Assembly: GCA_047456305.1 (NCBI GenBank)
Contig: CP179888.1
Span: 445,307-509,306 of the forward strand
Length of the DNA stretch: 64,000 nt
Source: Candidatus Nealsonbacteria bacterium
GTDB taxonomy: Bacteria; Patescibacteriota; Minisyncoccia; Minisyncoccales; CAZKCU01
Direction: 5' to 3'
A program made the position numbers and the translations under genes. Shown in pieces: positions 21,452-61,700 of the stretch; the first letter of the stretch is position 1, and the number at the start of each line of letters is the position of its first letter. A model generated the notes under the pieces. It was given only the letters and a program-made list of their open reading frames with translations. It was not told where the DNA came from and did no database searches.

Positions 21452-21492
21452 ATTATTCGTATATTCGTACTTATTCGTAATTCGTAGGGTTT

Positions 21493-23135: not shown

Positions 23136-23200
23136 ACGTTTTCATTTTAAACTTTTTATTAATTTTTGCAAGGCATTTGTTAATATGTTATAAAAAAAAC

Positions 23201-24934: not shown

Positions 24935-27109
24935 ATGCCTCGTTTATATCCAATTGAAAAGGTCAAAGATATAGGAATTATTGCTCATATTGATGCCGGA
25001 AAAACAACCGTGACAGAACGGGTGCTTTTTTATACCGGAATTTCCCATAAAATTGGAGAAGTTCACGATGGCCAAGCTATTATGGATTGGATGGAGCAAG
25101 AAAGAGAAAGAGGGATTACTATTACCGCTGCTGCCACCACCTGTTTTTGGACTCCACAAGATTTGGACGCCACCCTCCCGCCACCCCGAAAAAAAGATTA
25201 CAACCCACCCACCGCGTCCTCCCATTCGCCTGTCGGCGAACGGGTCCCTAATGAATATAGAATAAATATCATTGATACTCCAGGCCATATTGATTTTACT
25301 GCCGAAGTTCAAAGGTCTCTAAGGGTCTTAGATGGAGCAGTTGTGGTTTTTGATGGGGTGGCGGGAGTAGAGCCTCAGTCAGAAACTGTTTGGCGTCAGG
25401 CTGATACCTTTAAAATTCCCAGAATCTGCTTTATAAACAAAATGGACAGAATAGGAGCCTCTTTTGAAAAAAGTTTAGAATCTATTTTGGAAAAATTATC
25501 TCCGAATGCTCTAGCCCTTCAGCTACCAATTGGCGAAGAAGATAAATTTGAAGGAGTGATTGATCTTTTAAATCTGAAAGCTCTAAAATTTGAAGGTGAT
25601 TTCGGTCAAATAGTAAAAGAAGAAGATATTCCCGCTAATTTATTGGAAAAGGCAAAGGAATGGCGGGCAAAATTAGTTGAGAAAATTGTTGCTGAAGATG
25701 AAAGACTCTTGGAGAAATTTTTAGCTAAAAAAGAAGTTTCTATTGATGAGCTAAGAAAAGTTTTAAGAAAAGCTGTTTTAGACTACAAACTCGTTCCAGT
25801 TTTTTGCGGAGCAGCTCTCAGAAATATAGGAATCCAACCCCTCTTAGATGGAATTTGTTATTATCTTCCCAGTCCTTTAAATCTTCCACCGGTTAAGGGA
25901 ATTGATCCTAAAGATGGAAAAGAAATTGAAAGAAAACCGGAGGATTCAGAAAAATTTTCTGCCTTGGTCTTTAAAGTTGCGGATGACCCTTATGTTGGAA
26001 CCCTAACCTATTTTCGAGTTTATTCTGGTTTCTTAACAAGAGGCTCTTATTTATTAAACTCAACAACAGGAGAGAAAGAAAGGATTGGCCGGATTTTAAG
26101 AATGCATGCTTCGGAAAGAGAAGAGGTAAAAGAAATTTTCACCGGGGATATTGCTGCCACTATAGGGCTGAAAAAAACGTCCACCGGACATACTCTCTGT
26201 GAGATTAATAATCCAATTGTTCTTGAAAAAATTAGTTTTCCTGAACCGGTTATCTCTATACGCATTGAGCCAAAAACCCGGGCTGACCAGGAAAAGATGA
26301 GTTTGGCTCTAAGAAGATTGTCAGAAGAAGACCCCACTTTTAAAACCAAAAGTGATTTAGAAACTGGAGAGACGATTATTTCTGGAATGGGAGAATTGCA
26401 CCTTGAGATTATTGTTGATCGTATGAAAAGAGAATTTAAAGTGGAAGGCCTGGTGGGAAAACCTCAGGTAGCTTATAAGGAGACTATCAAACAGACTGCA
26501 GAGGCTGAAGGAAAATATATTAGACAATCGGGAGGACGAGGTCAATATGGTCATGTTTGGCTAAAGGTTTTACCAAAAAATAGGGGAGAGGGATTCGAAT
26601 TTATTGATGAAATCAAAGGCGGAATTATTCCCAAAGAATTTATTCCGGCAGTAGGAAAGGGAGTAAAGGAAGCTATAGAGAAAGGAATTCTGGCTGGATA
26701 TCCGATGGTTGATATGGAAGTTAGGCTGTATGATGGTTCTTTCCATGATGTAGATTCTTCAGAGGTCGCTTTTAAAATTGCAGGTTCTATAGCTCTTCAA
26801 GAAGCTTCCAAGAGAGCAAAACCAGTGATCCTCGAGCCAATTATGCGGCTTGAGGTTATTGTTCCTGAGGAATTTTTTGGTGATACTATCGGAGATTTAT
26901 CAGCCAGAAGGGGAAAAATTGAAGAGACTAAAGATAGATTAAATCTAAAAGTTATTGATGTTATTGTTCCTTTAGCTGAAATGTTTGGTTATGCCACTGC
27001 CCTACGTTCCTTGACTGAAGGCAGAGGAACCTTTACAATGGAATTTAATTACTACGAGGAAGTACCGGCAAATATTGCTCAGGAAATTATCGAAGGGCGA
27101 AGAAGATAA
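24935..27109 (+). CDS. fusA: elongation factor G, with a ~30-aa GC-rich insertion in the G domain
   Basis: [26 protein letters not shown]. Start taken at the ATG at 24935. Confidence 0.95.
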
Positions 27110-27190
27110 ATCTTCTTCTTGACCCTTCGCTAACGCTCGGGTGGCCGAAGAAGATAAATCTTCTTTTTTTCCCTTCGCTATCGCTCGGGA
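27091..27190 (+). repeat. two tandem small hairpin-box elements overlapping the fusA stop
   Basis: CGAAGGG-c-GAAGAAGA-taaa-TCTTCTTC-ttga-CCCTTCGCTAACGCTCGGG, then GAAGAAGAtaaaTCTTCTT...CCCTTCGCTATCGCTCGGGAG. The fusA TAA lies in the first hairpin loop. Confidence 0.8.
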
Positions 27191-27228
27191 GAAAGAGGAG
27201 ATGATTTTTATCCACAATTAGAGAACCA

Positions 27229-34756: not shown

Positions 34757-34926
34757 CAGCTTTTGGAAGATAATTTTTGGTACACGCAAATTTTTCCAGC
34801 GAAAATTTGCTCCTACTCGCGAATTGCTCGCCGCGAAGCGGCGAGACCAAGCCAATTCGCTGCGGACTCCACCCACCCGCCACCCTCCTAAGAGGCACCT
34901 GTCCCAAAAATTACTTCCCTCGCTTA
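34757..34926 (+). repeat. family A structured repeat, copy 3 (between rplN and rplX), carrying an extra CCACCC-rich ~33-nt insert
   Basis: about 90 percent identical by eye to copy 5, except for CTCCACCCACCCGCCACCCTCCTAAGAGGCACC at 34868-34900. Confidence 0.8.
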
Positions 34927-40573: not shown

Positions 40574-40668
40574 TCGAGAGAAGAAGCTTGCTTCTTCGAA
40601 CCCATCTGCGCTAGTCGATGAAGCTAAAGCTTCATCTCCATCTTCGCTTCCACAAGTGGAAGCTCGAT
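40571..40668 (+). repeat. three consecutive box-hairpin units (between adk and map)
   Basis: TCGAGAGAAGAAGCttgcTTCTTCGAACCC; TCGATGAAGCtaaaGCTTCATC; CTTCGC-TTCCAC-aa-GTGGAA-GCTCGA. Confidence 0.6.
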
Positions 40669-40670
40669 AA

Positions 40671-41435
40671 ATGATTACAATAAAATCAAAAGAGGAAATC
40701 GCTATAATTGCAGAAGGTGGTAAAATCCTGGCAAAAATTATGGCTGAGATAGAAAGAGAAATTCAGCCAGGAATTAAAACTCGCGAATTAGACAGGCTTG
40801 CTGAAAGCCTGATTTTAAAATCTGGAGGAAAATGTTCTTTTAAAGGATATCAAAAATTTCCGGCTTGTTTATGTACATCAATTAATGAAGAAATTGTTCA
40901 CACAGCTCCCTCAGACCGGCAATTAAAGGAAGGCGATATAATTTCTCTTGATTTGGGGATTTGTTTTAAAGGTTTTCATACCGATATGGCGGTTACCCTT
41001 CCGGTTACGAAACCCGGCAATGTAGGGAAAATTGACCCAGAGGCTTTAAGATTAATTCGGGTAACAAAAAAATCTCTAAAAAGAGGAATTAAAAAAGTTC
41101 ACCCGGGAAATACTTTTGGTGATATTGGAAATACTATTCAAAGATATGTTGAGAGCCAGGGATTCAATGTTGTCCGTGATCTTTGCGGTCATGGTATAGG
41201 AAAAGAGATTCACGAGGAACCCCAAATACTTAATTACGGAAAAAGACACACAGGTCCTAAAATTCAAGAGGGGATGATTTTTTGTATTGAACCGATGGTA
41301 ACAATAGGGGATTGGAAAATAAAAAAAAGCAAGGATGGTTACGGATTTGAAACAGCCGATGGTTCCTTGTCTTGCCATTTTGAACATACAATGGCTGTAA
41401 CAAAAGATAGTTGTCAGATCTTGACAGAAATTTAA
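40671..41435 (+). CDS. map: methionine aminopeptidase, type I
   Basis: operon position after adk; size and overall type I MAP pattern (..HG...D..L..GDI...D) by eye. Confidence 0.95.
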   Translation: MITIKSKEEIAIIAEGGKILAKIMAEIEREIQPGIKTRELDRLAESLILKSGGKCSFKGYQKFPACLCTSINEEIVHTAPSDRQLKEGDIISLDLGICFKGFHTDMAVTLPVTKPGNVGKIDPEALRLIRVTKKSLKRGIKKVHPGNTFGDIGNTIQRYVESQGFNVVRDLCGHGIGKEIHEEPQILNYGKRHTGPKIQEGMIFCIEPMVTIGDWKIKKSKDGYGFETADGSLSCHFEHTMAVTKDSCQILTEI

Positions 41436-41556: not shown

Positions 41557-42306
41557 ATGTACTTATCCGTCATCGTTCCTGCCTATAATGAGGAAAGGAG
41601 GTTGCCAAAAACTTTGCGAGAAATCGACAAATATTTAAGGGCAAAAACTTACGATTACGAAATTATTGTTGTTTCCGATGGTTCAAAAGACAGAACAGTT
41701 GAAGTTGTTAGGAATTTAATGGCCGAAATTAAGAATCTGAAAATCCTTGATTTTAAAGAAAATCAGGGTAAAGGTTTTGGTGTCCGCCAGGGAATGCTGG
41801 AGGCAAAAGGGGATTTTCGGCTTTTTACCGATGCCGACAATTCCACTTCGGTCGACCAAGTTGAAAAAATGTGGCCAGAATTTAAGAAGGGCTATGATAT
41901 TGTTATTGGGTCAAGAGATGTGAAGGGAGCGGTTTTAGATCCGCCCCAATCCTGGCTTCATGGATTTTTGGCTGACATTTTTAAGTTATTACGAAAAATA
42001 ATTGCTGGCCTTTGGGAACTTGAAGATACTCAATGTGGTTTTAAATGCTTTACTAAAAAAGCAGCTGAAAGCATTTTTCCCAAGTGTAAAATTAATCGTT
42101 TTGCTTTTGACCCAGAATTTTTAATTGTAGCTAAAAAATTAAGATATAAAATCAAAGAAATTCCAATTTATTGGAAAAATGACCCAGAAAGTAAAGTAAA
42201 GTTCAAAAGCATGGTAAAAATGGGAATTGATTTGTTAAAAATAAGGTGGAATTTAATAACTGAAAAGTATGATGAAACTAAAGTTTCATCAACAGCTTCG
42301 TTTTAA
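41557..42306 (+). CDS. family-2 glycosyltransferase (polyprenol-phosphate glycosyltransferase-like)
   Basis: SVIVPAYNEE, VVSDGSKD and DADNS motifs. Confidence 0.8.
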   Translation: MYLSVIVPAYNEERRLPKTLREIDKYLRAKTYDYEIIVVSDGSKDRTVEVVRNLMAEIKNLKILDFKENQGKGFGVRQGMLEAKGDFRLFTDADNSTSVDQVEKMWPEFKKGYDIVIGSRDVKGAVLDPPQSWLHGFLADIFKLLRKIIAGLWELEDTQCGFKCFTKKAAESIFPKCKINRFAFDPEFLIVAKKLRYKIKEIPIYWKNDPESKVKFKSMVKMGIDLLKIRWNLITEKYDETKVSSTASF

Positions 42307-42324
42307 TAAATTAAAACTCGCTAT

Positions 42325-43362
42325 ATGAATAAGAAAATTAATCAGAAGAAATTTCCTTCTGAATTACGGTTTGATTTGACTTCAAAAGATTGGGTTGTCA
42401 TTGCTACAGGTAGAGCAAAAAGGCCGGAAACTTTCAAGAGAGAAAAGCGGAAAAAAGAGGAATCCCCCAAAGCTCTATGTCCTTTTTGTCAAATTTCCAC
42501 TCAAGAAGCTCCTGTTTTAATTTTTTCTCATGGAAAAAAAATACCTTTAGAAAGGGGAATTCCTAAAGATTGGACTACTATTTCTATTCCTAATAAATTT
42601 CCAGCCTTTCTCCCTTCTAAAAAATTAAATCCAAGAGTTGAAGGAAAATTTTATAAAACAATAAATGCGGTAGGTTTCCATGAAGTAGTAATTACCAGAG
42701 ACCATAAAAAATCAATGGGTCAATTTTCAATTAGTCAGGTTAAAGAAGTACTTGATGTTTACCAGGAAAGATATTTAGAATTAATGAAAGAAAAATTTGT
42801 TAATTACGTTTCTATTTTTCATAACCATGGAGTTGAAGCTGGAGCTTCGATGTCGCATCCTCACTCCCAAATTATAACTACCCCTTTAATTGATGTTGAC
42901 CTTAAAAAAGCTCTCTTTAATTCAAGAAAATATTATAGAGCCCATCGAAAATGTATTTATTGTCAGATGAATAATTGGGAAAAGAAAAATAAAAAAAGAG
43001 TAGTTTTTGAAAATAAAGATTTTTTAGTAATTTGTCCCTTTGCTTCAAAAGCTGCCTTTGAAGTTATTATTTCTCCCCAAAAACATTTAGCTTATTTTGA
43101 GAAAATAACCGAAAAAGAAAAAGAGCTTTTATCTGAAGCTTTCCAGATAGCCTTAAACAAACTTTACAAAGCCCTGAATGATCCGGCTTATAATTTCTAT
43201 TTGCATACTTCCCCTTGCGATGGGAAAAAATATCCCTTTTACCACTGGCACTGGACAATATTACCAAAAACCGCTACCTGGGCTGGTTTTGAAATCGGCA
43301 CCAGAATGGAAATTTCTACCATTGAACCTAAAAAAGCTGCTGAATATTTAAGAAAGCAATAA
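42325..43362 (+). CDS. galactose-1-phosphate uridylyltransferase-like (GalT/HIT superfamily)
   Basis: CPFC zinc motif; HPHSQI (HxHxQ) active site. Confidence 0.7.
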   Translation: MNKKINQKKFPSELRFDLTSKDWVVIATGRAKRPETFKREKRKKEESPKALCPFCQISTQEAPVLIFSHGKKIPLERGIPKDWTTISIPNKFPAFLPSKKLNPRVEGKFYKTINAVGFHEVVITRDHKKSMGQFSISQVKEVLDVYQERYLELMKEKFVNYVSIFHNHGVEAGASMSHPHSQIITTPLIDVDLKKALFNSRKYYRAHRKCIYCQMNNWEKKNKKRVVFENKDFLVICPFASKAAFEVIISPQKHLAYFEKITEKEKELLSEAFQIALNKLYKALNDPAYNFYLHTSPCDGKKYPFYHWHWTILPKTATWAGFEIGTRMEISTIEPKKAAEYLRKQ

Positions 43363-43364
43363 AT

Positions 43365-43558
43365 ATTGCTCGGCAATGAAGTGTTAAAGTACCGATAGTT
43401 CAAATCCCAGCGCGAAGAGGATAAATTCTCTTCTTCCCCCTTCGCTATCGCTCGGGAGCGAGATTTGACTATCTACATTCTCGTCCCGTCGCTCCGACTT
43501 CGTCGGAGACCGTGCCGACGGGACTGCGAAAGTTACTTTAAAACTTATTGCCTCGCTT
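43365..43558 (+). repeat. family A structured repeat, copy 4, with a small hairpin-box element nested in its first loop
   Basis: TTGCTCGGCAA...TTGCCTCGCT. CCCAGCG[43413-43460 insert]CGAGATTTG; GTCCCGTCG/CGACGGGAC around CTCCGAC-ttcg-GTCGGAG then ACCGTGCC. Confidence 0.8.
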
Positions 43559-43565
43559 GATTATA

Positions 43566-44354
43566 ATGAAGCCCTTAATCGTAGCAAATTGGAAATGTAA
43601 CCCCACGACATTAAAAGAGGCAAAAGCCCTCTTTAATTCAGTTGGGAAAGGAATAAAAAATATCAAAAATGTGGAAGTAGTAATTTGTCCGCCCTTTGTT
43701 TATCTGCCGGTATTAATAGGTGCTTCCGCCTCCGCTCGCCGCAAGGAGAACTTCAGTAGACTCGCCTTTGGCTCGCAAAATTGTTTTTGGGAAGAGAAAG
43801 GAGCTTTTACCGGAGAAATTTCTCCCCGAATGCTTAAAGATATAGGGGTGAAGTATGTTATTTTAGGTCATTCTGAACGTCGGATTTACCTTAGTGAAAC
43901 CGACCAAATGATAAATAAAAAAATAAAAGCAGTTTTGAAAGCAAAATTAAATCCTATTTTATGTGTTGGAGAAACTAAAGAGGAGAGAAATCAAGGAAGA
44001 ACCCAGGAGGTTTTAAAAAATCAATTAATATCTGCCCTTTTGAACATTTCTAAATCTATAATTCAAAGCTCAAAATTCTCAATTGCCTATGAACCAATTT
44101 GGGCAATTGGGACAGGAAAAGCTTGTGAAACTAACGAAGCTCAAACTATGGGTTTATTCATTCGAAAAATTATAGCCCAGCTTTATGGAGGTTTTATTTC
44201 TAAAAAGGTTCAAATACTATATGGAGGAAGCATAAACTCTAAAAATGCGCTGAGTTATATTAAAGAAGCAAGAATGCAAGGGCTTTTAGTGGGAGGAGCC
44301 TCTTTAAATAAGCAAGAATTTATCCAATTAGTTAAAAATGTTAGTAAGGGTTGA
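43566..44354 (+). CDS. tpiA: triosephosphate isomerase
   Basis: ANWKCN, GHSERR, AYEPIWAIGTG and GGAS motifs. Start taken at the ATG at 43566 because the track start lies inside the repeat. Confidence 0.9.
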   Translation: MKPLIVANWKCNPTTLKEAKALFNSVGKGIKNIKNVEVVICPPFVYLPVLIGASASARRKENFSRLAFGSQNCFWEEKGAFTGEISPRMLKDIGVKYVILGHSERRIYLSETDQMINKKIKAVLKAKLNPILCVGETKEERNQGRTQEVLKNQLISALLNISKSIIQSSKFSIAYEPIWAIGTGKACETNEAQTMGLFIRKIIAQLYGGFISKKVQILYGGSINSKNALSYIKEARMQGLLVGGASLNKQEFIQLVKNVSKG

Positions 44355-44387
44355 TTTTCTTTTTTATTTTTGTTATTCTAATAAAGA

Positions 44388-44554
44388 ACCCACATCGGAA
44401 GGGGGTCGGGGAAACCCTTCGGTTTCCCCGTGTAGGAAAATATTAAAAACCGAGGGTTTTTAAAGAGCGAGCCCGAAGCGAGGCTGAGCTTGTCGAAGCC
44501 GAGCGCCAGCCGTAAGGCTGGATGAGGGCGAGCGACTAACTTAGTAATACCACT
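44388..44554 (+). repeat. family B structured element, copy 1, ending exactly at the ATG of 44555
   Basis: shares ACCCAyATCGGAAGGGGGTCGGGGAAACCyTTCGGTTTCCCCGTGTAGGAAAATA, GAGGGTTTyTTAA(A)GAGCGAGCCCGAAG and GAGGGCGAGCGACTAACTTAGTAAyACCACT-ATG with 50574-50760. Confidence 0.8.
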
Positions 44555-45073
44555 ATGGAAAATTTTTCTAAAGGCCATTTTTATAATCCAACCCGAGGAA
44601 ATTTGACATTGCCAAAGGTAATTGAAGAGATATTAAATTATATTGCCGAAAAGCCAGAGAAATTTTATGACATTATTGTTGGCTGTGATTCATCCTCAAA
44701 CCAGGAACCTCATTTCCCCGTGGCAGTAGTTATTTTGAGAATAGGAGAGGGAGGGAGATTTTTTCTTAAAAAAATAAGTTATCCTTTTTCTTCAAAAAAG
44801 AAATTTTATAACTGGAAAGAAAGAGTTCTGGAAGAAGTTTTGCTATCTTGCCAGCTGGCCTTATTTTTGAAGGAAAGTTTAGAAAAACAAATCAAAAAGT
44901 TAGTTCCCCTACCTAATTATCAGTTTCGATATATTCATGCTGATATTGGAGAAAATGGGCAGACAAAAGATATGATAAAAGAAGTGACTGGTCTTATTCA
45001 GGGAAATGGGTTTGAGCCCAAAATAAAACCGGAATCTTTTGTTGCCTCAACAGTAGCAGATAGATATACCTAA
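44555..45073 (+). CDS. YkuK-like (DUF458) RNase-H-fold protein
   Basis: IIVGCDSS...FPVAVVI...IHADIG pattern; moderate recognition only. Confidence 0.45.
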   Translation: MENFSKGHFYNPTRGNLTLPKVIEEILNYIAEKPEKFYDIIVGCDSSSNQEPHFPVAVVILRIGEGGRFFLKKISYPFSSKKKFYNWKERVLEEVLLSCQLALFLKESLEKQIKKLVPLPNYQFRYIHADIGENGQTKDMIKEVTGLIQGNGFEPKIKPESFVASTVADRYT

Positions 45074-45082
45074 AAATAAAAG

Positions 45083-46870
45083 ATGAATTCAAAAAGGCTT
45101 CGTCAGAAATTTTTAGAGTTTTTTGAAAAAAGAGGGCATAAAGTAGTGCCCTCAAGTTCGTTATTATCAACTGACCCCAGTGTTTTGTTTACCAGTGCTG
45201 GAATGCAGCAATTCAAAGTCTATTATTTAGGCGAGAAATCACCATATGGGTTGGATGTTGTTTCCTGTCAGAAATGTTTCAGGACCTCTGATATTGAGGA
45301 GGTGGGAAATGAAAAACATTTAACTTTTCTTGAAATGCTGGGCAATTTTTCTTTTGGGGGATATTTTAAAAAAGAAGCGATAAATTGGGCTTATCAATTT
45401 CTTTTTGAAGAATTAAAATTGCCAATAGAAGAAGCTATTTTCACGGTTTTTAAGGGTAACAAAGATGTCCCAGAAGATAAAGAATCGATTGAAATTTGGA
45501 AAAAATTAGGAATTCCCGAAAATAAAATAAAAAAATGTGGAAGAGCAGATAATTTTTGGGGGCCGACCGGCGAAGAAGGTCCTTGCGGCCCAACAACCGA
45601 AATTCATCTTCGAGGCATTGAGGTTTGGAATTTGGTTTTTAATGAATATTATCAAGACTACAACCCGCCCACCACCCACTCACCACCACGAAACAAAAAA
45701 TTAACTCCTTTAAAACAAAAAGGAGTAGATACTGGAATGGGTCTGGAAAGATTAGCTATGGTTGTTCAAAATAAACCCAGCGTCTTCGAGACCGATTTGT
45801 TTGAGCCTATTATCGGCGAGCTCCAAAAATACACGGGTCCCACCCCTGCAAATTTAAAAGCAGAAAGGATTATTGCTGACCACATTAAGGGTTCGATTTT
45901 TTTGATAGCAGAGGGGATTTTTCCTTCTAATGTGGAAGAAGGTTATGTTTTAAGAAGGATTCTACGAAGAGCGATAAGATTTGGGAAACTTTTAGACTAC
46001 AACCCACCCACCACCCAATATAGTTTTTTAATTCCTTTGGCTCAAAAAGTTATTGAAATTTATCAAGACATTTATCCCGAAGTAAAATCCCGAGAAGCTG
46101 ATATCTTAACTGTTATTCAAAAAGAAGGAGAGAAATTTGAAAAAACTTTGGAAAAAGGACTCAAAGAGTTTGGGAAAATTGCAGCCAAAGGCGATATTAA
46201 GGGAGATGAAGCCTTTCATCTTTATGATACTTACGGCTTTCCATTGGAGTTGACCGGAGAGTTGGCTAAAGAAAAGGGGCTGAAAGTCGATGTTAAAGGA
46301 TTCGAGGAATCCTTTAGAAAACACCAAGAAATTTCAAGAGCAGGTGTAGAAAAAAAATTTGGCGGAGTAGGGAAGAAAGTAACTTACGAATCAACTAAGC
46401 TTCATACAGCCACCCATTTACTTCACTCAGCTTTGAGAAAGATTTTCGGTGAACATGTTAGACAAATGGGATCTGACATTACTCTTCAGCGCCTTCGCTT
46501 TGATTTTTCTCATCCACAAAAAATGACAATTGAGGAGATAAAAAAAGTTGAAGATTTAGTTAATCAAAAAATTAGAGAAAATTTGGAGGTAAGAAAGGAA
46601 GAGATGTCATTGAAAGAAGCTCTAAATTCAGGAGCCTTATCTTTTTTTAAAGAGAAATACCCGGAAAAAGTAACTGTCTATTCAATAACCGAGCTTCTGA
46701 AGGAAGCGAAGGTGAAGAAGAGGACGAAGTCCTCTTCGCCTAAAGCTTTTTCAAAAGAAATTTGTGCCGGCCCCCATGTTAAAAAGACATCCGAATTAGG
46801 CAGTTTTAAAATTATAAAGGAAGAATCTTCTGGAGCAGGCGTGCGAAGAATTCGAGCTATTTTAAGATAA
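45083..46870 (+). CDS. alaS: alanyl-tRNA synthetase, short form (no C-Ala domain), with three small in-frame insertions
   Basis: F..F..RGH..V.SS.L; DTGMGLERL; HTATHLLH; CAGPHV. Confidence 0.9.
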   Translation: MNSKRLRQKFLEFFEKRGHKVVPSSSLLSTDPSVLFTSAGMQQFKVYYLGEKSPYGLDVVSCQKCFRTSDIEEVGNEKHLTFLEMLGNFSFGGYFKKEAINWAYQFLFEELKLPIEEAIFTVFKGNKDVPEDKESIEIWKKLGIPENKIKKCGRADNFWGPTGEEGPCGPTTEIHLRGIEVWNLVFNEYYQDYNPPTTHSPPRNKKLTPLKQKGVDTGMGLERLAMVVQNKPSVFETDLFEPIIGELQKYTGPTPANLKAERIIADHIKGSIFLIAEGIFPSNVEEGYVLRRILRRAIRFGKLLDYNPPTTQYSFLIPLAQKVIEIYQDIYPEVKSREADILTVIQKEGEKFEKTLEKGLKEFGKIAAKGDIKGDEAFHLYDTYGFPLELTGELAKEKGLKVDVKGFEESFRKHQEISRAGVEKKFGGVGKKVTYESTKLHTATHLLHSALRKIFGEHVRQMGSDITLQRLRFDFSHPQKMTIEEIKKVEDLVNQKIRENLEVRKEEMSLKEALNSGALSFFKEKYPEKVTVYSITELLKEAKVKKRTKSSSPKAFSKEICAGPHVKKTSELGSFKIIKEESSGAGVRRIRAILR

Positions 46871-46879
46871 AAATAAGCC

Positions 46880-46924
46880 GAATTCTTCTTACCCCTTCGC
46901 TGGCGCTCGGGAATAAGAAGAATT
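46880..46924 (+). repeat. small element with arms flanking the box (after alaS)
   Basis: GAATTCTTCTTA-CCCCTTCGCTGGCGCTCGGG-AATAAGAAGAATT. Confidence 0.75.
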
Positions 46925-46958
46925 AGGGCAATTTTGCAATAATTGCTATAATCAAACA

Positions 46959-48278
46959 ATGAAGATTAGTTTTCTTAAACCCAAGAAGAAGGGGGAGTAT
47001 TTTTTAGTTTTAGATATCGGCACAGAAGCAGTAAAAGCTATAATTTTTTCTCTCTCAGAAAAAAAAGATAAAAAGATTACTATTTTGGGAAACTCTCTTT
47101 CCTACTTTGACAGTTACGGGCTATTTGACAGTCAGGATTTTGAAGCCGATGTTGTTAAAAAAACTATTTCAAAAACGATTAAAGAGGCTCAAGAAAAAGT
47201 TAATCAAAAGCCAAGCGAGGCGGAGCCGAGCGAGGCGGGAGATGAGACGAAGTCTCAGCGACCGCCTAACCTGACATTACTTGAATTGCCAGCTAACATT
47301 TTAAAAGGAAGAATTGCTTTTCAGTCTTTTAAAAGAAAAAATTCTCAATCGATTATTGACAAAAAAGAGAAAGAAGTGATTTATCAGAAGATTTTAAGCA
47401 AGGCTCAAAATGAAATTTCCCAGATTTTTGCCACAGAATCCGGCATTTTGCCAAAAGATGTTCACTTTATTAACCTAAAAATCCTGGAAATAAAAATTGA
47501 TGGATATGTAGTGCCAGTTCTTCAAGGGTATGATGGAAAAAATTTAGATTTTAGAATTTTAGCTATTTTTTTACCGAAATATTATTTAGAGAATATCAAA
47601 AAAATTATTCAGGCTTTAATTCCTACTGATTTTTATAGAGATAAATATATCCAGGAAGACTTTACCAAAAACGAGGAGGGATTAGAAATTCTCCACCTTG
47701 CGGAAGCCTTACCTTATTTCTTTACAAGGAGAGTGGTTGATGGAATTTTTCTTGATGTTGGAGGAAATTTGACCCAGATTTTTTTAGTAAACAATGGAAA
47801 ACTAAATAATGTCGATGAATTCGAAATAGGAGGAAAAACTTTTTCCCAAGCTCTTTCTCAGAGCTTGGGAATAGAAATTTCAGAGGCAAGAGTTTTAAAA
47901 GAAAATTATTCTAAAGGAGAATTATCAGAAGAAGTGAGAAAAAGAGTTAGAGAGATTTTTTCTCAATCTTTAGGAGATTGGTTCAAAAATCTAAAACTAA
48001 AATTAAAGACCCAAAGCATTTTTGGCAGAGGAAGGAAATCTGGAGGTGTACTACTTCCATCAACTTTTTTTCTTTTCGGGGGAGGAAGTCAACTGCCTGA
48101 AATTCAGGAAATTTTAGAAGAGGGGAATTGGGAAGACTTTTCTTTTTTTACTCCCCCAAAAGTAAAATTTATTTATCCAAATGATCTCAGAAATATTGAA
48201 GATATAACAAAAAAATTAAATAGCCCTCAAGACATCCCTGCCTTACTACTTTGTTATGCCTCCCAAATCTATGACTAA
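46959..48278 (+). CDS. actin-like ATPase (FtsA/PilM family)
   Basis: LVLDIGTEAVKA, FLDVGGNLTQI and FGGGSQLP motifs. Confidence 0.6.
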   Translation: MKISFLKPKKKGEYFLVLDIGTEAVKAIIFSLSEKKDKKITILGNSLSYFDSYGLFDSQDFEADVVKKTISKTIKEAQEKVNQKPSEAEPSEAGDETKSQRPPNLTLLELPANILKGRIAFQSFKRKNSQSIIDKKEKEVIYQKILSKAQNEISQIFATESGILPKDVHFINLKILEIKIDGYVVPVLQGYDGKNLDFRILAIFLPKYYLENIKKIIQALIPTDFYRDKYIQEDFTKNEEGLEILHLAEALPYFFTRRVVDGIFLDVGGNLTQIFLVNNGKLNNVDEFEIGGKTFSQALSQSLGIEISEARVLKENYSKGELSEEVRKRVREIFSQSLGDWFKNLKLKLKTQSIFGRGRKSGGVLLPSTFFLFGGGSQLPEIQEILEEGNWEDFSFFTPPKVKFIYPNDLRNIEDITKKLNSPQDIPALLLCYASQIYD

Positions 48279-49608
48279 AAAAATTTTTGATATTTTTCCT
48301 CCGGAAACTCCGACTACCTTTAGGCCGGAGGACTTTCAGGCTCCAAAATCTTCAGCTCAGCTAGAGATTTCTTCGCCAAAGGCGAACAAATTACCAACTG
48401 GAAAGTATCTGAGAGGGAAGAGGGGTTTAATTTTAGTTCTTGGAGTTTTAATTTTAACCGGGATTTTTGGTTATTTTTTATTACCTCGAGCTCAAATAGA
48501 AATTTGGCCGGAAACTCAAACTTTGAATTTTAAAGAAAAAATAGAGGTTTCTTCAGAAGTAATTCAGCCTAATCCCGGCTTTTGGCTAAAGCGTGGGGCT
48601 ATCCCTGGAAAAGTTTTTTATAATCAAAAATCTTCTTCTCAAGAATTTCTTTCATCGGGTAAGCTAATTAAAGAAGAGAAGGCCAGGGGTATAATTCGAG
48701 TTTACAATGCTTATTCTACCTCTTCTCGATCGTTAATACCTTCTCGTTTTATTTCGGCCGATGGAAAATTATTTTGGTCATTGAAAAAAGAGGTGATTCC
48801 CGGGGGGAAATATGAGAAAGAAAAGTTTATTCCAGGTTACGCCGACATTGAGGTTCAGGCAGCCGAGGCAGGAGAAGATTATAATATTAAACCCTCTACT
48901 TTTGCTCTTCCTGCTCTTGCCGGAAGTCCATTATACACTACCATTTATGGAAGATCTTTCTCTCCTATGACAGGTGGCTTTAAAGGTGAAGTTTCTCAGG
49001 TTACTCAGGAAGATTTAGAGAAGGCAGAAAGTATTTTAGCCACCAATCTTTTTGAAGAGGGGAGTAAAGCTTTAAAAAATGAGCTCCAGTCGAATAAAAA
49101 TTCCTCAGATTTTATCTTGCTTAATGAAGCTCAGAGTCAAGAAATTGTTGAGGCTTTATCTTCGGTCAAGCCAGGCGAGGAGGCTCAAACATTTAATTTC
49201 CAGGTTAAAGTTGATTCAAAGGCTTTAGTATTTAAAAAATCTGATTTAGAAAAATTTGCCAAAGAATTTATTCTTTCTCAAATACCTCAAAATGATTTAG
49301 AGCCAAATATCTTCTGGTTAAATAAAAAAATTCACAATGAAAGTCTAAAAATAGATTTTAGACCAGAATCAATAGATTTGAAATCAAAGAAGATTGTCTT
49401 AAATTTAGACATCACTGCTAAAGTTTATTCAGATATTAATGAGATTAGCCTAAAGAAAGCCCTTTTCGGGAAACCTTTAGAAGAAACCCAAATTCTTTTG
49501 GAAGATCAGCCTCAAATTACTAAAGTCCAGGTAAAATTTTGGCCATTTTGGGTAAAGAGAGTTCCCCAAAATATGGGAAGGATTAAAATAAAACTAAATA
49601 TTGACTAG
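48256..49608 (+). CDS. hypothetical membrane-anchored protein
   Basis: ORF track; one TM helix after ~60 aa; overlaps the preceding gene end. Confidence 0.5.
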   Translation: MPPKSMTKKIFDIFPPETPTTFRPEDFQAPKSSAQLEISSPKANKLPTGKYLRGKRGLILVLGVLILTGIFGYFLLPRAQIEIWPETQTLNFKEKIEVSSEVIQPNPGFWLKRGAIPGKVFYNQKSSSQEFLSSGKLIKEEKARGIIRVYNAYSTSSRSLIPSRFISADGKLFWSLKKEVIPGGKYEKEKFIPGYADIEVQAAEAGEDYNIKPSTFALPALAGSPLYTTIYGRSFSPMTGGFKGEVSQVTQEDLEKAESILATNLFEEGSKALKNELQSNKNSSDFILLNEAQSQEIVEALSSVKPGEEAQTFNFQVKVDSKALVFKKSDLEKFAKEFILSQIPQNDLEPNIFWLNKKIHNESLKIDFRPESIDLKSKKIVLNLDITAKVYSDINEISLKKALFGKPLEETQILLEDQPQITKVQVKFWPFWVKRVPQNMGRIKIKLNID

Positions 49609-49643
49609 TTTAGGAAAATTTGTTATTGTAAATAATTATCTTA

Positions 49644-49868
49644 ATGATAAATTCAAATAAAAAATTCTTACGAAAATCCGGTCAGGTGATAGAAGCTTTG
49701 CCCAGTATCCATTTCCGAGTAAAGTTAGATGATGGGAAAGAAATAATTGCTCATCTGGCTGGGAAATTAAGACTTTATCGAATAAAAGTTTTACCTGGTG
49801 ATCGGGTAACAGTAGAAATGAGCCCTTATGATGAAAAAAGGGGAAGAATAGTGTATCGTGGGAAATAG
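49644..49868 (+). CDS. infA: translation initiation factor IF-1
   Basis: G.V.E.LP...FRV.L..G....AH..GK.R...I....GD.V.VE.SPYD...GRI.YR. Confidence 0.95.
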   Translation: MINSNKKFLRKSGQVIEALPSIHFRVKLDDGKEIIAHLAGKLRLYRIKVLPGDRVTVEMSPYDEKRGRIVYRGK

Positions 49869-49968
49869 TCAAAGAAGATAAATCTTCTTCTTCACTCTTC
49901 GTTGCGGCTCGGGTAGTCAAAGAAGATAAATCTTCTTTTCCATCTTCGCTTTAATAAATTAAAGCTCA
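49866..49968 (+). repeat. two tandem small hairpin-box units starting at the infA stop codon
   Basis: TAGTCAAAGAAGAtaaaTCTTCTTCTTCACTCTTCGTTGCGGCTCGGG, then TAGTCAAAGAAGAtaaaTCTTCTTTTCCATCTTCGCT-TTAAtaaaTTAA-AGCTCA. Confidence 0.8.
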
Positions 49969-49972
49969 ATAA

Positions 49973-50086
49973 ATGAAGGTTCGCTCATCAGTTAAAAAAA
50001 TTTGTAAAAATTGTAAAATAGTTCGGCGAAAAGGCCGACTCTATGTTATCTGTAAAAATCCCAAGCATAAACAACGCCAAGGATAA
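49973..50086 (+). CDS. rpmJ: 50S ribosomal protein L36
   Basis: hand-translated [37 protein letters not shown]; below the ORF-track cutoff. Confidence 0.9.
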
Positions 50087-50162
50087 TTTTAACTATAAAC
50101 CTTAAACCATAAACATTTAATTAAGTTTAGAGTTTATTGTTTAAAGTTTTGCGAAACAAGAG

Positions 50163-50552
50163 ATGCCACGCATAGCTGGTGTAAACATACCAGAACAAAA
50201 ACAAATAGAAGTTGCCTTAACCTATATTTTTGGCATAGGACTGTCTTTGAGCAGAAAGATTTTAGCTACAGCTGGTATTGAAAAGCAGAGACTGGCATCT
50301 GAGTTAACTCCGGAAGAAATAAATCTGCTTAAAGAAATTATTGAAAAAAAATATAAAATTGAGGGGAATCTTAAAAGAGAGATAATGATAAATATTAGAA
50401 GATTAAAAAATATATCTTCTTTTCGAGGAATTCGTCATATTAAAGGGTTACCGGTGAGAGGCCAAAGAACCCGAACAAATACTCGGACTGTCCGGGGGAA
50501 TGTCAGAAAAACAGTAGGATCGGGAAGAAAACCACCGGCAGCCCCCAAGTAA
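50163..50552 (+). CDS. rpsM: 30S ribosomal protein S13
   Basis: MPRIAGV.IP; GIRH..GLPVRGQRT.TN. Confidence 0.95.
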   Translation: MPRIAGVNIPEQKQIEVALTYIFGIGLSLSRKILATAGIEKQRLASELTPEEINLLKEIIEKKYKIEGNLKREIMINIRRLKNISSFRGIRHIKGLPVRGQRTRTNTRTVRGNVRKTVGSGRKPPAAPK

Positions 50553-50573
50553 AGCTTCCTACTAAAACGACCG

Positions 50574-50760
50574 ACCCATATCGGAAGGGGGTCGGGGAAA
50601 CCTTTCGGTTTCCCCGTGTAGGAAAATAAGAGTGAGTTGCTAAAAGCAACGAACGACGTAAGAAAACGAGGGTTTCTTAAGAGCGAGCCCGAAGGTCGAC
50701 GAAGGCGACCGCTGGAGCAAAGCTCCAGAGAGGGCGAGCGACTAACTTAGTAACACCACT
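50574..50760 (+). repeat. family B structured element, copy 2, ending exactly at the rpsK ATG
   Basis: see 44388-44554. Variable helices differ but stay paired: GTCG-acgaagg-CGAC and CTGGAGC-aaa-GCTCCAG, versus GGCT...AGCC and CCAGCC-gtaa-GGCTGG. Confidence 0.8.
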
Positions 50761-51213
50761 ATGGGTAAAAAGAGAATCATCACTAAAACAGAAGAAGAGC
50801 TTTTGAAAGAAAGAGAAAAAGTAGAAGAGAGCCTAAAAAAAGAGGTTAAACTTAAACCCTCTCAAAAGATTAGAGAAGGCAGAATTTATGTTTTAGCTTC
50901 TTATAATAACACCATTATAACTTTAACCGATATTCGGGGAAATGTTTTGGCCTGGGCCAGTGCAGGCAATATTGGATTTAAAGGAACAAAAAAGGCTACT
51001 CCTTTTGCCGCCTCGAGGGTAGCGGAAGTTTTAGCTCAGGCTGCTAAAAAATTAGGAATTGAGAAGGTAGCCGTTTTAGTAAAGGGAATTGGGTCAGGCC
51101 GGGAATCAGCAGTTAGATCTTTGGCTGCCAGAGGTCTTGATATCATTTCAATTAAAGATGTCACACCGATTCCCCATAATGGATGTAGACCGCCAAAAGT
51201 TCGTCGAGTTTAA
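50761..51213 (+). CDS. rpsK: 30S ribosomal protein S11
   Basis: operon position between rpsM and rpsD; S11-like core AS.NNTI.T.TD..GN...W.S.G..GFKG..K.TPFAA. Confidence 0.95.
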
Positions 51214-51222
51214 TATCAATTT

Positions 51223-51855
51223 ATGCAGAATTCTAAATGTAAAATATGTCGCCGATTAGGAATAAAGCTCTTCTTGAAGGGTGAACGTTGTTTAACCCAA
51301 AAATGCCCAATGGTAAAAAGGTCCTATCCGCCCGGTCAGAAGAAGAAAAGGAGAATCAGGGCTCCTTCTGAATATGGGAAAGAATTAAGGGAAAAACAAA
51401 AATTAAAAAAATGCTATAATTTAGGAGAAAGGCAATTTCGGAAATACGTGAAAGAAATCTTAGAGTCTCATCGGGGAGAAAAAAAAGATGTCCTCACTTT
51501 ATTAATTAAAACTTTAGAAAGTCGTTTAGATAATGTGATTTTTCGGTTAGGAATTGCCGCTTCCAGATCTCAGGCAAGGCAATTAATCTCCCACGGTCAT
51601 TTTTTAGTTAACTCAAAAGCAGTTAACAACCCAGGATATCTTGTAAAAAAAGGAGACAAAATTAGAATCTCCCCGTCTTCTCGTAAAAAAATTATTTTTC
51701 AAAACCTCCCTACTTTATTAAAAAAAAGAGAGCTGCCTTCTTGGATTTCTTTAGATGTTGAAAAAATAGAAGGGAAGGTGATAGGTACCCCTTCTTTAGA
51801 GGAGGCTGTTCCTCCGGCTGAAGTTTCACTAATATTTGAGTATTATTCAAGATAA
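51223..51855 (+). CDS. rpsD: 30S ribosomal protein S4
   Basis: CK.CRR.G.KLFLKG.RC; S4 domain LESRLDNV.FR.G.A.SR.QARQL..HGH. Confidence 0.95.
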   Translation: MQNSKCKICRRLGIKLFLKGERCLTQKCPMVKRSYPPGQKKKRRIRAPSEYGKELREKQKLKKCYNLGERQFRKYVKEILESHRGEKKDVLTLLIKTLESRLDNVIFRLGIAASRSQARQLISHGHFLVNSKAVNNPGYLVKKGDKIRISPSSRKKIIFQNLPTLLKKRELPSWISLDVEKIEGKVIGTPSLEEAVPPAEVSLIFEYYSR

Positions 51856-54710: not shown

Positions 54711-54873
54711 GCTCAGGAAGTTAATTTTTGGTACACGCGAATTTTTCCAGCGAAAATTCGCTGCTACTCGCGAATTGCTCCGACTTCGTGGGAGACCAAG
54801 CCAATTCGCTGCGGATTGTCCCAAAAATTACTTCCCTCGCTCCGAAATTTACTCTGAAACTTGTTACCTCGCT
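54711..54873 (+). repeat. family A structured repeat, copy 5, plus a truncated 3' remnant of another copy
   Basis: AATTTTTGGTACA/TGTCCCAAAAATT, GCGAATTTT-tccagcg-AAAATTCGC, GCGAATTG..ACCAAGCCAATTCGC. The following CCGAAATTTACTCTGAAACTTGTTACCTCGCT matches the 3' end of copy 1. Confidence 0.8.
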
Positions 54874-54925
54874 TACCCGAGCCGCAGGCGAAGGGTGAAG
54901 AAAAGGACGAAGTCCTCTTTGCCTA
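54874..54925 (+). repeat. small hairpin-box element
   Basis: ACCCGAGCCGCAGGCGAAGGGTGAAGAAAAGGACgaaGTCCTCTTTGCC. Confidence 0.75.
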
Positions 54926-54936
54926 GTTGATAATTT

Positions 54937-54997
54937 ATGCTCAAAGAATTTTCAATTCATTTCGATCTTCAATAAATTTTCAATTTATTTCGATGTT
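54937..54997 (+). repeat. 61-nt leader repeat, copy 1 (includes the ATG of the Cas4-like gene)
   Basis: identical to 61090-61150 except for one base. Confidence 0.85.
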
Positions 54998-55685
54998 AAA
55001 AGAGTTAATTGATAAATTTTATTTAGACAGAAAAAAAGATAAAGAACAGCAGCATTTTTATATTAGCGAGGCAGGGAAGTGTCCCCGACAGATTTTTTTT
55101 AAATTTAAAAACGCCCCCCGGAAAGAAATGGAGGCAAATATTTTAAGGTTATTTGACCATGGCGACCACATGCACCAGCTTATTATGAAGCCTCTTTTAA
55201 GCACAAGGGAGGTACGAGTGGTATCAGCTGAAGTGGAAATTCCTCCCCAAGAGCTTGTGAAAGGGAGGGCGGATGCAGTAATTAGTGATGGTAAAGAGCT
55301 TTATGTTTTAGATATTAAAAGTATGAATAGTATGATTTTTAGAAATTTAACTTCTCCCAAAGAAGAAAACATTAATCAAATTCAACTCTACCTTCATTAT
55401 TTTAAAATAGCAAAGGGGATACTTCTTTACGTTGATAAAGATAAATTGAATTTGAAAGAATTCGTGATTGATTACAATAAGACATTAGCTGAGAAAATTT
55501 TAAGCGATTTAGCTTACCTAAAAAAACAAATTGATTCCAATATTATTCCTCCGAGAATCCCTGATTATTCAGATAACTGGCAGTGTTCATACTGCCAATT
55601 TAGAGAACTTTGCGATATAGGGGTTCCAGGCGAAATGAACTGGGAAGATTTTAAGAAAAAAATCGAAGCCCAAAATACAAAATAA
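54993..55685 (+). CDS. Cas4-like PD-(D/E)xK nuclease with Fe-S cysteines
   Basis: GKCPRQ near the N-terminus, D...DIK core, C-terminal CSYCQFRELC. Start taken at the ATG at 54993. Confidence 0.6.
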   Translation: MLKELIDKFYLDRKKDKEQQHFYISEAGKCPRQIFFKFKNAPRKEMEANILRLFDHGDHMHQLIMKPLLSTREVRVVSAEVEIPPQELVKGRADAVISDGKELYVLDIKSMNSMIFRNLTSPKEENINQIQLYLHYFKIAKGILLYVDKDKLNLKEFVIDYNKTLAEKILSDLAYLKKQIDSNIIPPRIPDYSDNWQCSYCQFRELCDIGVPGEMNWEDFKKKIEAQNTK

Positions 55686-61089: not shown

Positions 61090-61150
61090 ATGCTCAATGA
61101 ATTTTCAATTCATTTCGATCTTCAATAAATTTTCAATTTATTTCGATGTT
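61090..61150 (+). repeat. 61-nt leader repeat, copy 2 (includes the frr ATG)
   Basis: see 54937-54997. Confidence 0.85.
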
Positions 61151-61700
61151 TAAAGAAATTATTAACAAAATCAAACCCGAACTGGACAAAACCATTAATT
61201 TTTTAGATAGGGAATTAGCTAAAATTCGAACTGGACGGGTTTCAGCTTCCTTGGTTGAAGATTTAATGGTTGATTACTACGGAAAAAAAACTCCCTTAAA
61301 ACAAGTATCTTCAATTTCAACTCCTGGTCCTCGAACTCTTTGCATTCAGCCCTGGGACCATTCGATTCTTCTAAATATTGAAAAAGCCATCTTGGAATCA
61401 AATTTGGGGATAAATCCAATTGTTGAGAAAGATTTAATTAGACTTTCTTTGCCTCCTCTAAGTGAAGAATATCGAAAAAATCTTCTTCGAGTTTTAAATG
61501 AAAAATTAGAAGCAGCTCGTTTGACTCTCAGACGCTGGAGAGAGGAAGCCTGGCGCCAGATTCAAGAGGGGTTTAGGCAGGGAAAAATTCGAGAAGATGA
61601 TAAATTTCGGGCAAAAGACGAACTCCAAGAATTGATTGATGAATATAATCAAAAGATTAAAGAGATGGAGGAGAGAAAAAAGAAGGAGATAATGAAGTAA
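61146..61700 (+). CDS. frr: ribosome recycling factor
   Basis: R.GR..P..L....V.YYG...PL.Q...I; 184 aa. Confidence 0.9.
   Translation: MFKEIINKIKPELDKTINFLDRELAKIRTGRVSASLVEDLMVDYYGKKTPLKQVSSISTPGPRTLCIQPWDHSILLNIEKAILESNLGINPIVEKDLIRLSLPPLSEEYRKNLLRVLNEKLEAARLTLRRWREEAWRQIQEGFRQGKIREDDKFRAKDELQELIDEYNQKIKEMEERKKKEIMK

Follow-up and report, generated by a model that had tools for sequence, protein, structure and literature searches.

The 64-kb stretch of the Candidatus Nealsonbacteria contig CP179888.1 analyzed here (the window) carries two copies of a structured element that runs directly into the start codon of the gene behind it. The element represents an uncatalogued family of structured RNA leaders, of a kind related to cis-acting leaders and intergenic repeats, with about 100 copies (97 of them distinct) in Nealsonbacteria and Paceibacterales genomes and metagenomes. 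Its copies share a fold, a characteristic geometry of tail and AUG and a range of gene contexts, and they have been under long-term selection. As they combine a selected sense-strand fold at the 5' boundary with a largely unpaired tail, we tentatively favor, at somewhat less than an even chance, the view that the element is a portable post-transcriptional 5' module acting on whatever RNA starts at its 3' end. From the sequences we infer an RNA activity of this sort, with stabilizing and ribosome-presenting roles.

The sequence-only reading of the window had described two copies of a leader sharing three long conserved blocks. Both are present as described, at 44387-44554 and 50573-50760, with no others in the 64 kb; each block matched the window twice (at most three mismatches), compared to 0 of 100 shuffles. 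Block 1 (ACCCAyAUCGGAAGGGGGUCGGGGAAACCyUUCGGUUUCCCCGUGUAGGAAAAUA, 55 nt) differs at two positions between the copies and blocks 2 and 3 are near base-identical, while the segments between the blocks are wholly different yet still form hairpins. These fold as had been claimed (CCAGCC/GGCTGG versus CTGGAGC/GCTCCAG, and GGCT..AGCC versus GGTCG..CGACC), and so does the extra GTTGC-taaaa-GCAAC hairpin of copy 2. The 3' ends proposed earlier also stand, whereas the 5' edges move by one base, to 44387 and 50573 instead of 44388 and 50574. In both copies the ATG follows directly after ...ACCACT, at 44555 and 50761. A covariance-model search of the window returned only the two copies, with 176 and 134 bits and a next best match of 11.8 bits, and their single-sequence folds are more stable than those of shuffled sequences (z = -3.2 and -4.5). 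The genes behind them are indeed unrelated, encoding a PF04308 RNaseH_like/YkuK-type protein (copy 1) and ribosomal protein S11 (rpsK; copy 2); those in front encode triose-phosphate isomerase and S13, respectively. The parts of the two copies, with P2 to P4 denoting the conserved helices and hpA and hpB the variable hairpins, are as follows.

44387..44393, + strand: copy 1, 5' edge AACCCAC (consensus A-U/A-CCCA-n), from alignments A2/A3
44394..44405, + strand: copy 1, 5' purine strand AUCGGAAGGGGG, proposed to lie along P2, from register-specific covariation
44394 and 44399-44404, + strand: copy 1, proposed contacts, A44394 with the P2-loop U and A44399-G44404 (consensus 13-18) in R.R-Y base triples, from covariation
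44407..44430, + strand: copy 1, hairpin P2, CGGGGAAACC-CUUC-GGUUUCCCCG, from the fold and family double changes in 6/10 pairs
44431..44442, + strand: copy 1, joining strand UGUAGGAAAAUA (family GUnUAGGAAAAnA, with a conserved UAG inside), near-invariant in A2/A3
44443..44463, + strand: copy 1, hairpin P3, UUAAAAACC-GAG-GGUUUUUAA, from A-U to G-C and U-A to C-G exchanges
44465..44474, + strand: copy 1, P4 5' strand GAGCGAGCCC, partner of 44526-44536 via two tandem G.A motifs
44478..44504, + strand: copy 1, variable hairpin hpA, GCGAGGCU...AGCCGAGCGC, from the two-hairpin rule in the family
44506..44521, + strand: copy 1, variable hairpin hpB, CCAGCC-GUAA-GGCUGG, from the same rule
44526..44536, + strand: copy 1, P4 3' strand GGGCGAGCGAC, from pairing and covariation
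44537..44554, + strand: copy 1, tail of 18 nt, UAACUUAGUAAUACCACU, from tail consensus and spacing
44555..45073, + strand: gene behind copy 1, RNaseH_like/YkuK-type, 172 aa, ATG flush with the tail (Pfam PF04308)
50163-50552, + strand: rpsM in front of copy 2, stopping 20 nt before the element
50573..50591, + strand: copy 2, 5' edge GACCCAU plus purine strand AUCGGAAGGGGG (50580-50591)
50593..50616, + strand: copy 2, hairpin P2, CGGGGAAACC-UUUC-GGUUUCCCCG, from fold and covariation
50617..50659, + strand: copy 2, joining strand UGUAGGAAAAUA plus inserted hairpin GUUGC-UAAAA-GCAAC (50636-50650)
50660..50678, + strand: copy 2, hairpin P3, AAGAAAAC-GAG-GGUUUCUU, with one A.G mismatch, from fold and covariation
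50681..50742, + strand: copy 2, three-way junction, with P4 strands 50681-50690 and 50732-50742
50694-50710 and 50712-50728, + strand: copy 2, hpA GGUCGACGAAGGCGACC and hpB CUGGAGC-AAA-GCUCCAG, from fold and covariation
50743..50760, + strand: copy 2, tail of 18 nt, UAACUUAGUAACACCACU, from tail consensus
50761..51213, + strand: gene behind copy 2, rpsK (ribosomal protein S11)

Further copies were obtained in three ways. A scan of species-representative genomes with 19 nt of block 3 gave true copies in one Candidatus Nealsonbacteria metagenome-assembled genome (two loci) and one Candidatus Paceibacterales metagenome-assembled genome, plus one chance match. A metagenome search with a two-anchor pattern yielded 112 loci; the element is complete in about 97 of these, and the other 15 or so, in GC-rich contigs, matched by chance. 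Finally, covariance model R1, run over 100 of those loci, gave 115 matches, 97 of them distinct. The 12 R1 matches outside the search pattern are free of the ascertainment that fixes CGAGGGUUU and GAGGGCGAGCGAC elsewhere; in most copies these two blocks are set by the pattern itself, the model alignment is biased to its own structure and the model E-values are rough. Among the extra matches is a second subtype with the same 5' domain and tail and another junction domain, GGAGCGGUGUUAG-[hairpins]-CGCGUGCCGCGAC. Copy density, as counted in the window and in single loci, is 2 copies in the 64-kb window and at most 4 in 11.7 kb (locus L036). In a near-identical strain (L001, NCBI GCA_964518365.1), the rpsM-rpsK copy has a 49-nt branched expansion inside P2. 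Conserved structure and start-codon abutment were both kept in the great majority of the roughly 100 copies. On viral contigs, no copy matched any of three patterns. An Rfam scan, which had been suggested as a check, placed no Rfam 15 family on the element: at gathering thresholds the window gave only the tRNA at 22840-22911, relaxing the limit to E = 10 over 43300-51300 produced nothing that overlapped either copy, and seven other family loci gave tRNAs only. A full-text literature search found no description of the element, with a coverage that is incomplete and does not prove novelty.

The family alignment defines an RNA fold of 135-260 nt, with a minimal form of about 135 nt up to the tail. 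It begins with the 5' edge A(U/A)CCCAn and the purine strand AUCGGARRGGGG, followed by P2 (GGGGRRAACC-loop-GGUUYYCCCC; double changes in 6/10 pairs), the near-invariant joining strand GUnUAGGAAAAnAUU and P3 (AAAAACC-GAG-GGUUUUU). P4 closes a three-way junction by pairing of GAGCGAGCCC with GGGCGAGCGAC, with hpA and hpB inside, and the tail UAACUUnGUAwUACCACU (18-20 nt) completes the element. On the model alignment, P2, P3 and P4 together are paired in 97.9% of cells and show changes on both sides in 14 of 25 pairs; none of 500 shuffles matched the observed helix values, and sliding the partner by one column lowered pairing to 54-61%. In L041 and L059, which carry GCUCGCCC, the inner GA is replaced by UC and G.A/A.G thereby becomes U-A/C-G, a switch to Watson-Crick pairs that supports the P4 pairing. 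Of the 84 distinct type-1 copies, 80 have exactly two hairpins at the hpA and hpB positions; their stems are diverse and unrelated in sequence, and the loops are mostly GAA or GNRA-type. Covariation thus supports five helices, namely P2, P3, P4 with its tandem G.A pairs and the two hypervariable hairpins, and what had been noted for two copies, helices that differ in sequence and remain hairpins, extends as compensatory change across the family. G.U pairs and GNRA- or UUCG-like loops are consistent with the strand of the downstream gene only. Three sites accept inserted hairpin modules: the P2 tip, the P2-P3 joining strand and the P3 tip. Modules resembling a second repeat family of the window (Family A, see below) sit in P2 and P3 of the element in L001, L010 and L116. 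Two further helices were considered and rejected: a closing helix of the 5' edge with the tail or AUG (CCAUA/UAUGG and GUGUAGG/CCACU do not covary) and a P1 like that of the hepatitis delta virus (HDV) ribozyme (CCCAnAU with GUnUAGG), which shows no covariation at its variable positions.

The 5' purine strand appears to be tied to P2 by tertiary contacts. Mutual information links its positions 14 and 15 to two variable P2 pairs, and the relation is one of identity with the P2 purine strand in mirror order, that is, parallel complementarity to the pyrimidine strand. In this parallel register complementarity reaches 90.6%, with 67 double-change cells versus 31.7 +/- 10 in shuffled alignments (0/500), and is lost on sliding. 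An antiparallel helix of the purine strand with the P2 3' strand was rejected, since a fixed register gives 49% pairing and zero double changes; a shifting-register helix, with a different register per haplotype, might still serve as a switch. We propose that the pattern reflects R.R-Y base triples, G.G-C and A.A-U. Position 15 is U.A-U in L048, L097 and L116, and L100 turns a third triple into U.A-U as well. In addition, A8, just 5' of the purine strand, covaries with a P2-loop nucleotide (AU 55, UA 3, CG 3, GC 1, plus wobbles), variants of this pair arise in several unrelated loop contexts, and the pair sits where a strand laid along P2 would end. The two dominant haplotypes mean that relatedness inflates the triple-covariation counts, and GGAAAGGGG haplotypes break one triple.

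The distance from the fold to the downstream gene was counted over 105 occurrences of block 3, duplicates included. The start codon of a real open reading frame (ORF) lies 18, 19 or 20 nt past GAGCGAC in 64 of them and 9 nt past it in 9; most of the rest fall at 5-31 nt. In these cases the AUG directly follows the full or shortened tail with at most about 5 extra bases, and a longer unrelated spacer was never seen. The fold-start distance is in this respect constrained, as it is in internal ribosome entry sites (IRES) and standby sites. Abutment to a start codon thus holds for the great majority of copies rather than for every one: two abut the +1 nucleotide of a tRNA and about 10% are orphans. 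The 51 downstream proteins include 67 Pfam families, mostly housekeeping, among them translation genes (S11, S13, S4, S19, S18, S21, L14, L13, L24, IF1, EF-P, RRF, LysRS, SerRS) as well as NusA, NusG, SecY, GroEL, ClpP, DnaB, MreB, pilus genes, galU and pilB. The tail consensus GUAUUACC is the exact complement of GGUAAUAC in the universally conserved 530 loop of 16S rRNA, to which the window copies (44545-44552 region) have 1-2 mismatches; none of the loci analyzed contains a 16S rRNA gene. UAACUUU in the tail resembles the T7 gene 10 epsilon enhancer, UUAACUUUA. Two downstream arrangements stand apart. In four different genomes (L082:673-, L096, L116, L083) the element and the dCMP-deaminase-type gene behind it are separated by a conserved tiny ORF, a candidate leader peptide (MGIEIVE*, MGIEIKE*, MGITIE*, MGLEIE*). 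At L074:1694-1800, another repeat (GACUACAACCCGCCC..., with related window copies at 45655-45678 and 45994-46017) is inserted just inside the start of pcm. The gene has its first nine or so codons twice (MALIDDLIE... then MSLINLLIE...), and the ORF now driven by the element is a short dead end.

On the upstream side, a same-strand ORF stops 1-12 nt before the element in about half of the copies; these stops are scattered over the whole interval, and a fixed upstream-stop position was therefore rejected. Some upstream ORFs without their own stop read about 12-16 codons into the element and end at the conserved UAG of GUnUAGGAAAA (L014:9399-9450 and L079, both S17; L072; L054). Other copies lie 6-10 nt past good, often extended, -10 boxes (L030, L017, L092/L031, L059, L036:4133) and begin approximately at the predicted transcription start, with the reservation that AT-rich flanks yield many spurious -10 matches. 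Following promoters or stop codons, the element is best regarded as a transcribed leader or intercistronic RNA with no promoter of its own. The lack of a Shine-Dalgarno sequence before the ATG, which the sequence-only reading had stressed, is true of both window copies, but it is generic rather than specific to the element, since essentially no window gene has one. CCACUAUG was considered as a lineage-wide start context and discarded: it occurs 55 times in 733 kb, 42 times as part of the element and 13 times elsewhere, which is no more than chance would give. Promoters of the leaderless type occur in the window at 46930-46961 (TATAAT, 6 nt, then the ATG of the ORF at 46959) and at 23165-23203 (TTGCAA-16 nt-TTATAA, 7 nt, then the ATG at 23201).

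Exact abutment to both AUG and tRNA +1 would also suit a fixed transcription start, and the element might then act at the DNA level, as a promoter starting at the base after CCACT or through H-DNA or single-stranded DNA formed by its purine mirror repeat. TAnnnT-like hexamers in the tail (TAACTT, and TAGTAT in some copies) agree with such a promoter, and the mirror repeat GGARRGGGG-UC-GGGGRRA is a classic H-DNA motif. We nevertheless rejected a promoter within the tail: in most copies even the best -10 candidates have the wrong spacing or miss the key A or T, no -35 element is present, shortened tails would place the start inside the ORF, and good promoters lie upstream of several copies. As G.U pairs and strand-specific loops favor RNA as well, action at the DNA level is very improbable.

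The age of the copies bears on whether the element is mobile. Orthologous genes carry it in different genomes (rplN, rpsK, mreB, secY, nusA, pcm, efp, frr, rpsR and others). In these pairs the downstream proteins are 69-84% identical and third codon positions 40-52%, near saturation, whereas the 5' core of the element remains 80-93% identical, compared to 72-80% for coding DNA; over the same divergence the hairpins have been replaced. The persistence of orthologous copies despite saturated synonymous sites points to an old origin and to purifying selection on an RNA fold rather than to recent activity as a repeat. At the same time, the use of junctions varies: the window has the element before rpsK only, L054 before rpsK and rpsD, and L118 before rpsM. 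Terminal inverted repeats were not found, the ends AUCCCAnAUCGG... and ...UACCACU not being inverted repeats, and the flanks show no locus-specific target-site duplication. The earlier description as a mobile or duplicated leader is hence borne out as far as multi-copy, intergenic occurrence before unrelated genes is concerned; recent mobility is not supported.

These properties invite comparison with REP/BIME elements of enterobacteria, BOX/RUP of pneumococci and Correia elements of Neisseria, which likewise occur only in intergenic gaps, with hairpins and with variable presence, and which are present in dozens per genome and co-transcribed with their neighbors, as the element probably is. 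The element could be a selfish or neutral repeat, similar to REP, BOX, Correia or miniature inverted-repeat transposable elements (MITE), that is tolerated in short gaps before genes, its abutment to stop and start codons resulting from insertion into the very short spacers of a compact genome. Its high copy number (up to 4 in 11.7 kb), its orphan and decayed copies, its varying presence at the rpsM, rpsK and rpsD junctions and the insertion of hairpin modules into its loops are all in line with this. Abutment to ATGs is also seen in other, unrelated repeats of the window, and part of it therefore reflects a compact genome without Shine-Dalgarno sequences. Yet the element is much larger than REP, BOX or Correia repeats, has a conserved multi-helix tertiary fold, a fixed orientation, a fixed 3' junction with the start codon and orthologous copies over long divergence. 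While it is multi-copy and intergenic as REP and MITE are, neither terminal inverted repeats and target duplications nor an associated transposase were found, its core is more conserved than neighboring coding DNA, and compensatory and tertiary covariation indicate selection on the RNA fold. We consider a merely tolerated repeat improbable.

If the RNA is selected, it could act as a global regulatory leader, a riboswitch-like or protein-binding RNA that senses one general signal (for example an alarmone nucleotide, an ion, the ribosome, or a protein that belongs to it or binds RNA) and jointly controls genes for translation, secretion, chaperones, cell shape and tRNAs as a growth regulon. Riboswitches, T-boxes and ribosomal-protein leaders resemble the element in being structured 5' leaders of about 150 nt, placed directly before the coding region, with conserved joining strands, helices that covary and variable peripheral hairpins. 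Its strongly conserved joining strands and tertiary-structured core are aptamer-like, it is retained at orthologous sites over long times, its targets, including a tRNA operon, resemble a stringent or growth regulon, and the second subtype swaps the junction domain and keeps the 5' domain and tail. Unlike such leaders, however, the element precedes more than 60 unrelated protein families plus tRNAs, and neither the single pathway nor the expression platform of a riboswitch was found: there is no U-tract terminator, no platform sequestering the AUG, no covarying pairing with tail or AUG and no match to an Rfam aptamer. Moreover, glycosyltransferases, PCMT, dCMP deaminase leader peptides and unknowns are among the targets. 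Nor is the element confined to one operon, that of a binding protein, as ribosomal-protein autoregulation would have it, with copies before rpsK, rpsM, rpsD, rpsS, rplN, rplM, rplX, rpsR and rpsU, and also groEL, secY, mreB, galU, pilB, dnaB and others. We rate a sensing leader as unlikely.

The identical junction CCACU|N+1 before ATG, tRNA-Lys (L041) and tRNA-Tyr (L036) could alternatively mark a processing site. The fold would then direct cleavage at its 3' boundary, and perhaps at the 5' one too, either autonomously or through an RNase, which would yield leaderless mRNAs beginning with AUG and tRNAs with a mature 5' end, similar to tRNA punctuation in mitochondria, where structured RNA also fills the gap between stop and start and mRNAs become leaderless once it is excised. 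The 5' edge at 1-12 nt past stop codons in about half of the copies, the near-universal ATG start and the leaderless-type promoters of the genome (such as TATAAT-6 nt-ATG at 46959) agree with this. In contrast to mitochondrial punctuation, the element is not tRNA-like: ARAGORN detected no tRNA or tmRNA in the window copies or the four L036 copies, and Rfam was negative. Excision is hypothetical, and with a tail of 5-31 nt and a second mode at 9 nt, cleavage would occur at no fixed distance from the fold. Furthermore, the conserved 18-nt tail would be thrown away, and RNase P makes tRNA 5' ends whatever the leader. No Rfam model of a self-cleaving ribozyme (hammerhead, twister, HDV-like, pistol, hatchet, glmS) or of RNase P matched at E up to 10. 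Nor do the junction strands (GAA / G / AGA) fit a hammerhead core. Taken together, processing at the junction seems rather improbable, on a par with the tolerated repeat.

We return to the portable 5' module. In this proposal the element would be a transcribed cis-acting leader or intercistronic RNA acting after transcription, in two parts. The first would be a tertiary-locked fold, in which the purine strand docks on P2, followed by P3 and the three-way junction closed by the G.A-rich P4. This fold would mark and protect the 5' boundary of the downstream cistron or pre-tRNA, block 5'-end-dependent or 5'-to-3' decay and insulate the start region from the upstream cistron. RNase J was sought among the large window ORFs, which include AlaRS, EF-G, SecY, the serine recombinase and others, and none was found. 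The second part, the mostly unpaired tail of about 18 nt, may present the AUG at a set distance for initiation without Shine-Dalgarno pairing. Its length is about that of the mRNA stretch covered by the 30S subunit 5' of the start codon, roughly one ribosome half-footprint, so that the fold could sit on the ribosome platform with no naked RNA between fold and ribosome. The earlier suggestion that the element delivers a translation start context is plausible.

Known systems are comparable to either part. The 5' hairpins of ompA and aprE, the cryIIIA STAB-SD and the exonuclease-resistant RNAs (xrRNA) of flaviviruses place structure near the extreme 5' end and act on any downstream RNA, as the element would, and a 5' strand locked by tertiary contacts beside a three-way junction is found in this group and proposed for the element. 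There is neither sequence homology nor demonstrated structural homology to them, nuclease resistance of the element is hypothetical, and the known bacterial stabilizers are, unlike the element, simple hairpins and not repeated families. Viral IRES, the platform-binding operators of rpsO and thrS and the T7 gene 10 epsilon hold a structured or sequence element at a defined spacing upstream of the AUG, as is the case here, and work without or beside Shine-Dalgarno pairing. The bacterial examples of docking are single-gene repressor sites, whereas the element, whose docking is hypothetical, would be a genome-wide positive module. A portable module would account for the copy at the tRNA operon, the copies at predicted transcription starts, the housekeeping bias, the loss of the AUG in orphans and the near absence of naked spacer.

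Several observations weigh against this proposal. The tail has a predicted mean unpaired probability of 0.53, which is moderate only, and tails as short as 5-12 nt occur, so the ruler between fold and AUG is not strict. Variants lacking P2, or P3 and the junction, still precede genes (L028:1543, L017:9513, L055:1645), which indicates that the full fold is dispensable at least sometimes. A tRNA +1 occupies the junction in two independent copies (the tRNA-Lys and tRNA-Tyr loci above), and translation cannot be the sole role. The tRNA-Tyr in L036 is, however, the first gene of a tRNA operon behind a promoter-proximal copy, which fits a general 5'-protective role. The orphans are well conserved although no gene follows them. 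L006/L103/L105, L009/L101 and L051 have a convergent gene opposite, L090 is followed by a promoter, and where the AUG would stand there is AGG, AGU or AAU, or an ORF of 3-20 codons. Orphans and tRNA copies together show that the element is not a device for translation starts only. A portable module does not demand that the element abut AUG and tRNA +1 exactly, which it can explain by genome compaction only, and the sequence conservation exceeds what a purely mechanical block would need. Finally, purine-motif triplexes reportedly disfavor RNA strands (Semerad & Maher 1994).

A bolder reading joins several of these threads. In bacteria without Shine-Dalgarno sequences, the element might be a self-contained RNA device by which the 5' end of the RNA behind it is set, which we regard as a long shot of about the same weight as the sensing leader. 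In one form it would be a new kind of punctuation, a ribozyme or a guide for an RNase, that gives rise to mRNAs without leaders and to tRNAs with mature 5' ends; in the other, a bacterial fold, IRES-like or resistant to exonucleases, with a purine-motif RNA triple helix at its center. Both forms would make the element a genome-wide standard expression cassette for housekeeping genes. The chance that it is categorically new is, in our estimate, similarly low, about one in five.

The remaining features of the window concern its other repeats and neighboring loci. A second intergenic repeat family, presumably Family A, occurs at 27100-27215, 40612-40674, 42266-42328, 43415-43482 and 49872-49976, and also at 7862-7924. 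Its hairpins are of the types AAGAAGAUAAAUCUUCUU and CCCUUCGC..GCUCGGG, and in several copies a terminal ...CUCGAUAAAUG directly adjoins a start codon (40671, 42325, 49973). Where the window has a Family A repeat between infA and rpmJ, L001:2064-2163 is a scaffold gap of exactly 100 N, which suggests that these repeats break assemblies. Further intergenic repeats, in two or three copies of 83-94% identity, lie at 54937-55016 and 61090-61169, at 34765-34829 and 54716-54780, and at 21417-21452, 43524-43559 and 54840-54875; among these, two extend up to an ATG (54993 and 61146). Repeat families make up much of this genome's intergenic DNA. A weak Rfam match to Alpha_RBS, the S4-binding leader of the alpha operon, at 50090-50195 on the + strand (23.7 bits, gathering threshold 38, E = 0.033) lies just upstream of rpsM, exactly in the expected place, and may therefore be a divergent true member. 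A large serine recombinase at 18911-20572 on the + strand, with Resolvase, Recombinase and Zn_ribbon_recom domains, possibly marks an integrated mobile element or prophage.

Bacteria of the Candidate Phyla Radiation have tiny genomes and few known regulators, and this lineage does without Shine-Dalgarno sequences. An element that is probably present as dozens of repeats per roughly 1-Mb genome and selected before ribosomal, chaperone, secretion and tRNA genes is a strong candidate for a lineage-wide post-transcriptional expression device. It is also a natural test case for a purine-type RNA base-triple motif backed by covariation, and may serve synthetic biology as a ready-made insulator plus start site. 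Should it turn out to be no more than a tolerated repeat, one would still have to explain why it meets stop codons, start codons and tRNA +1 so precisely.

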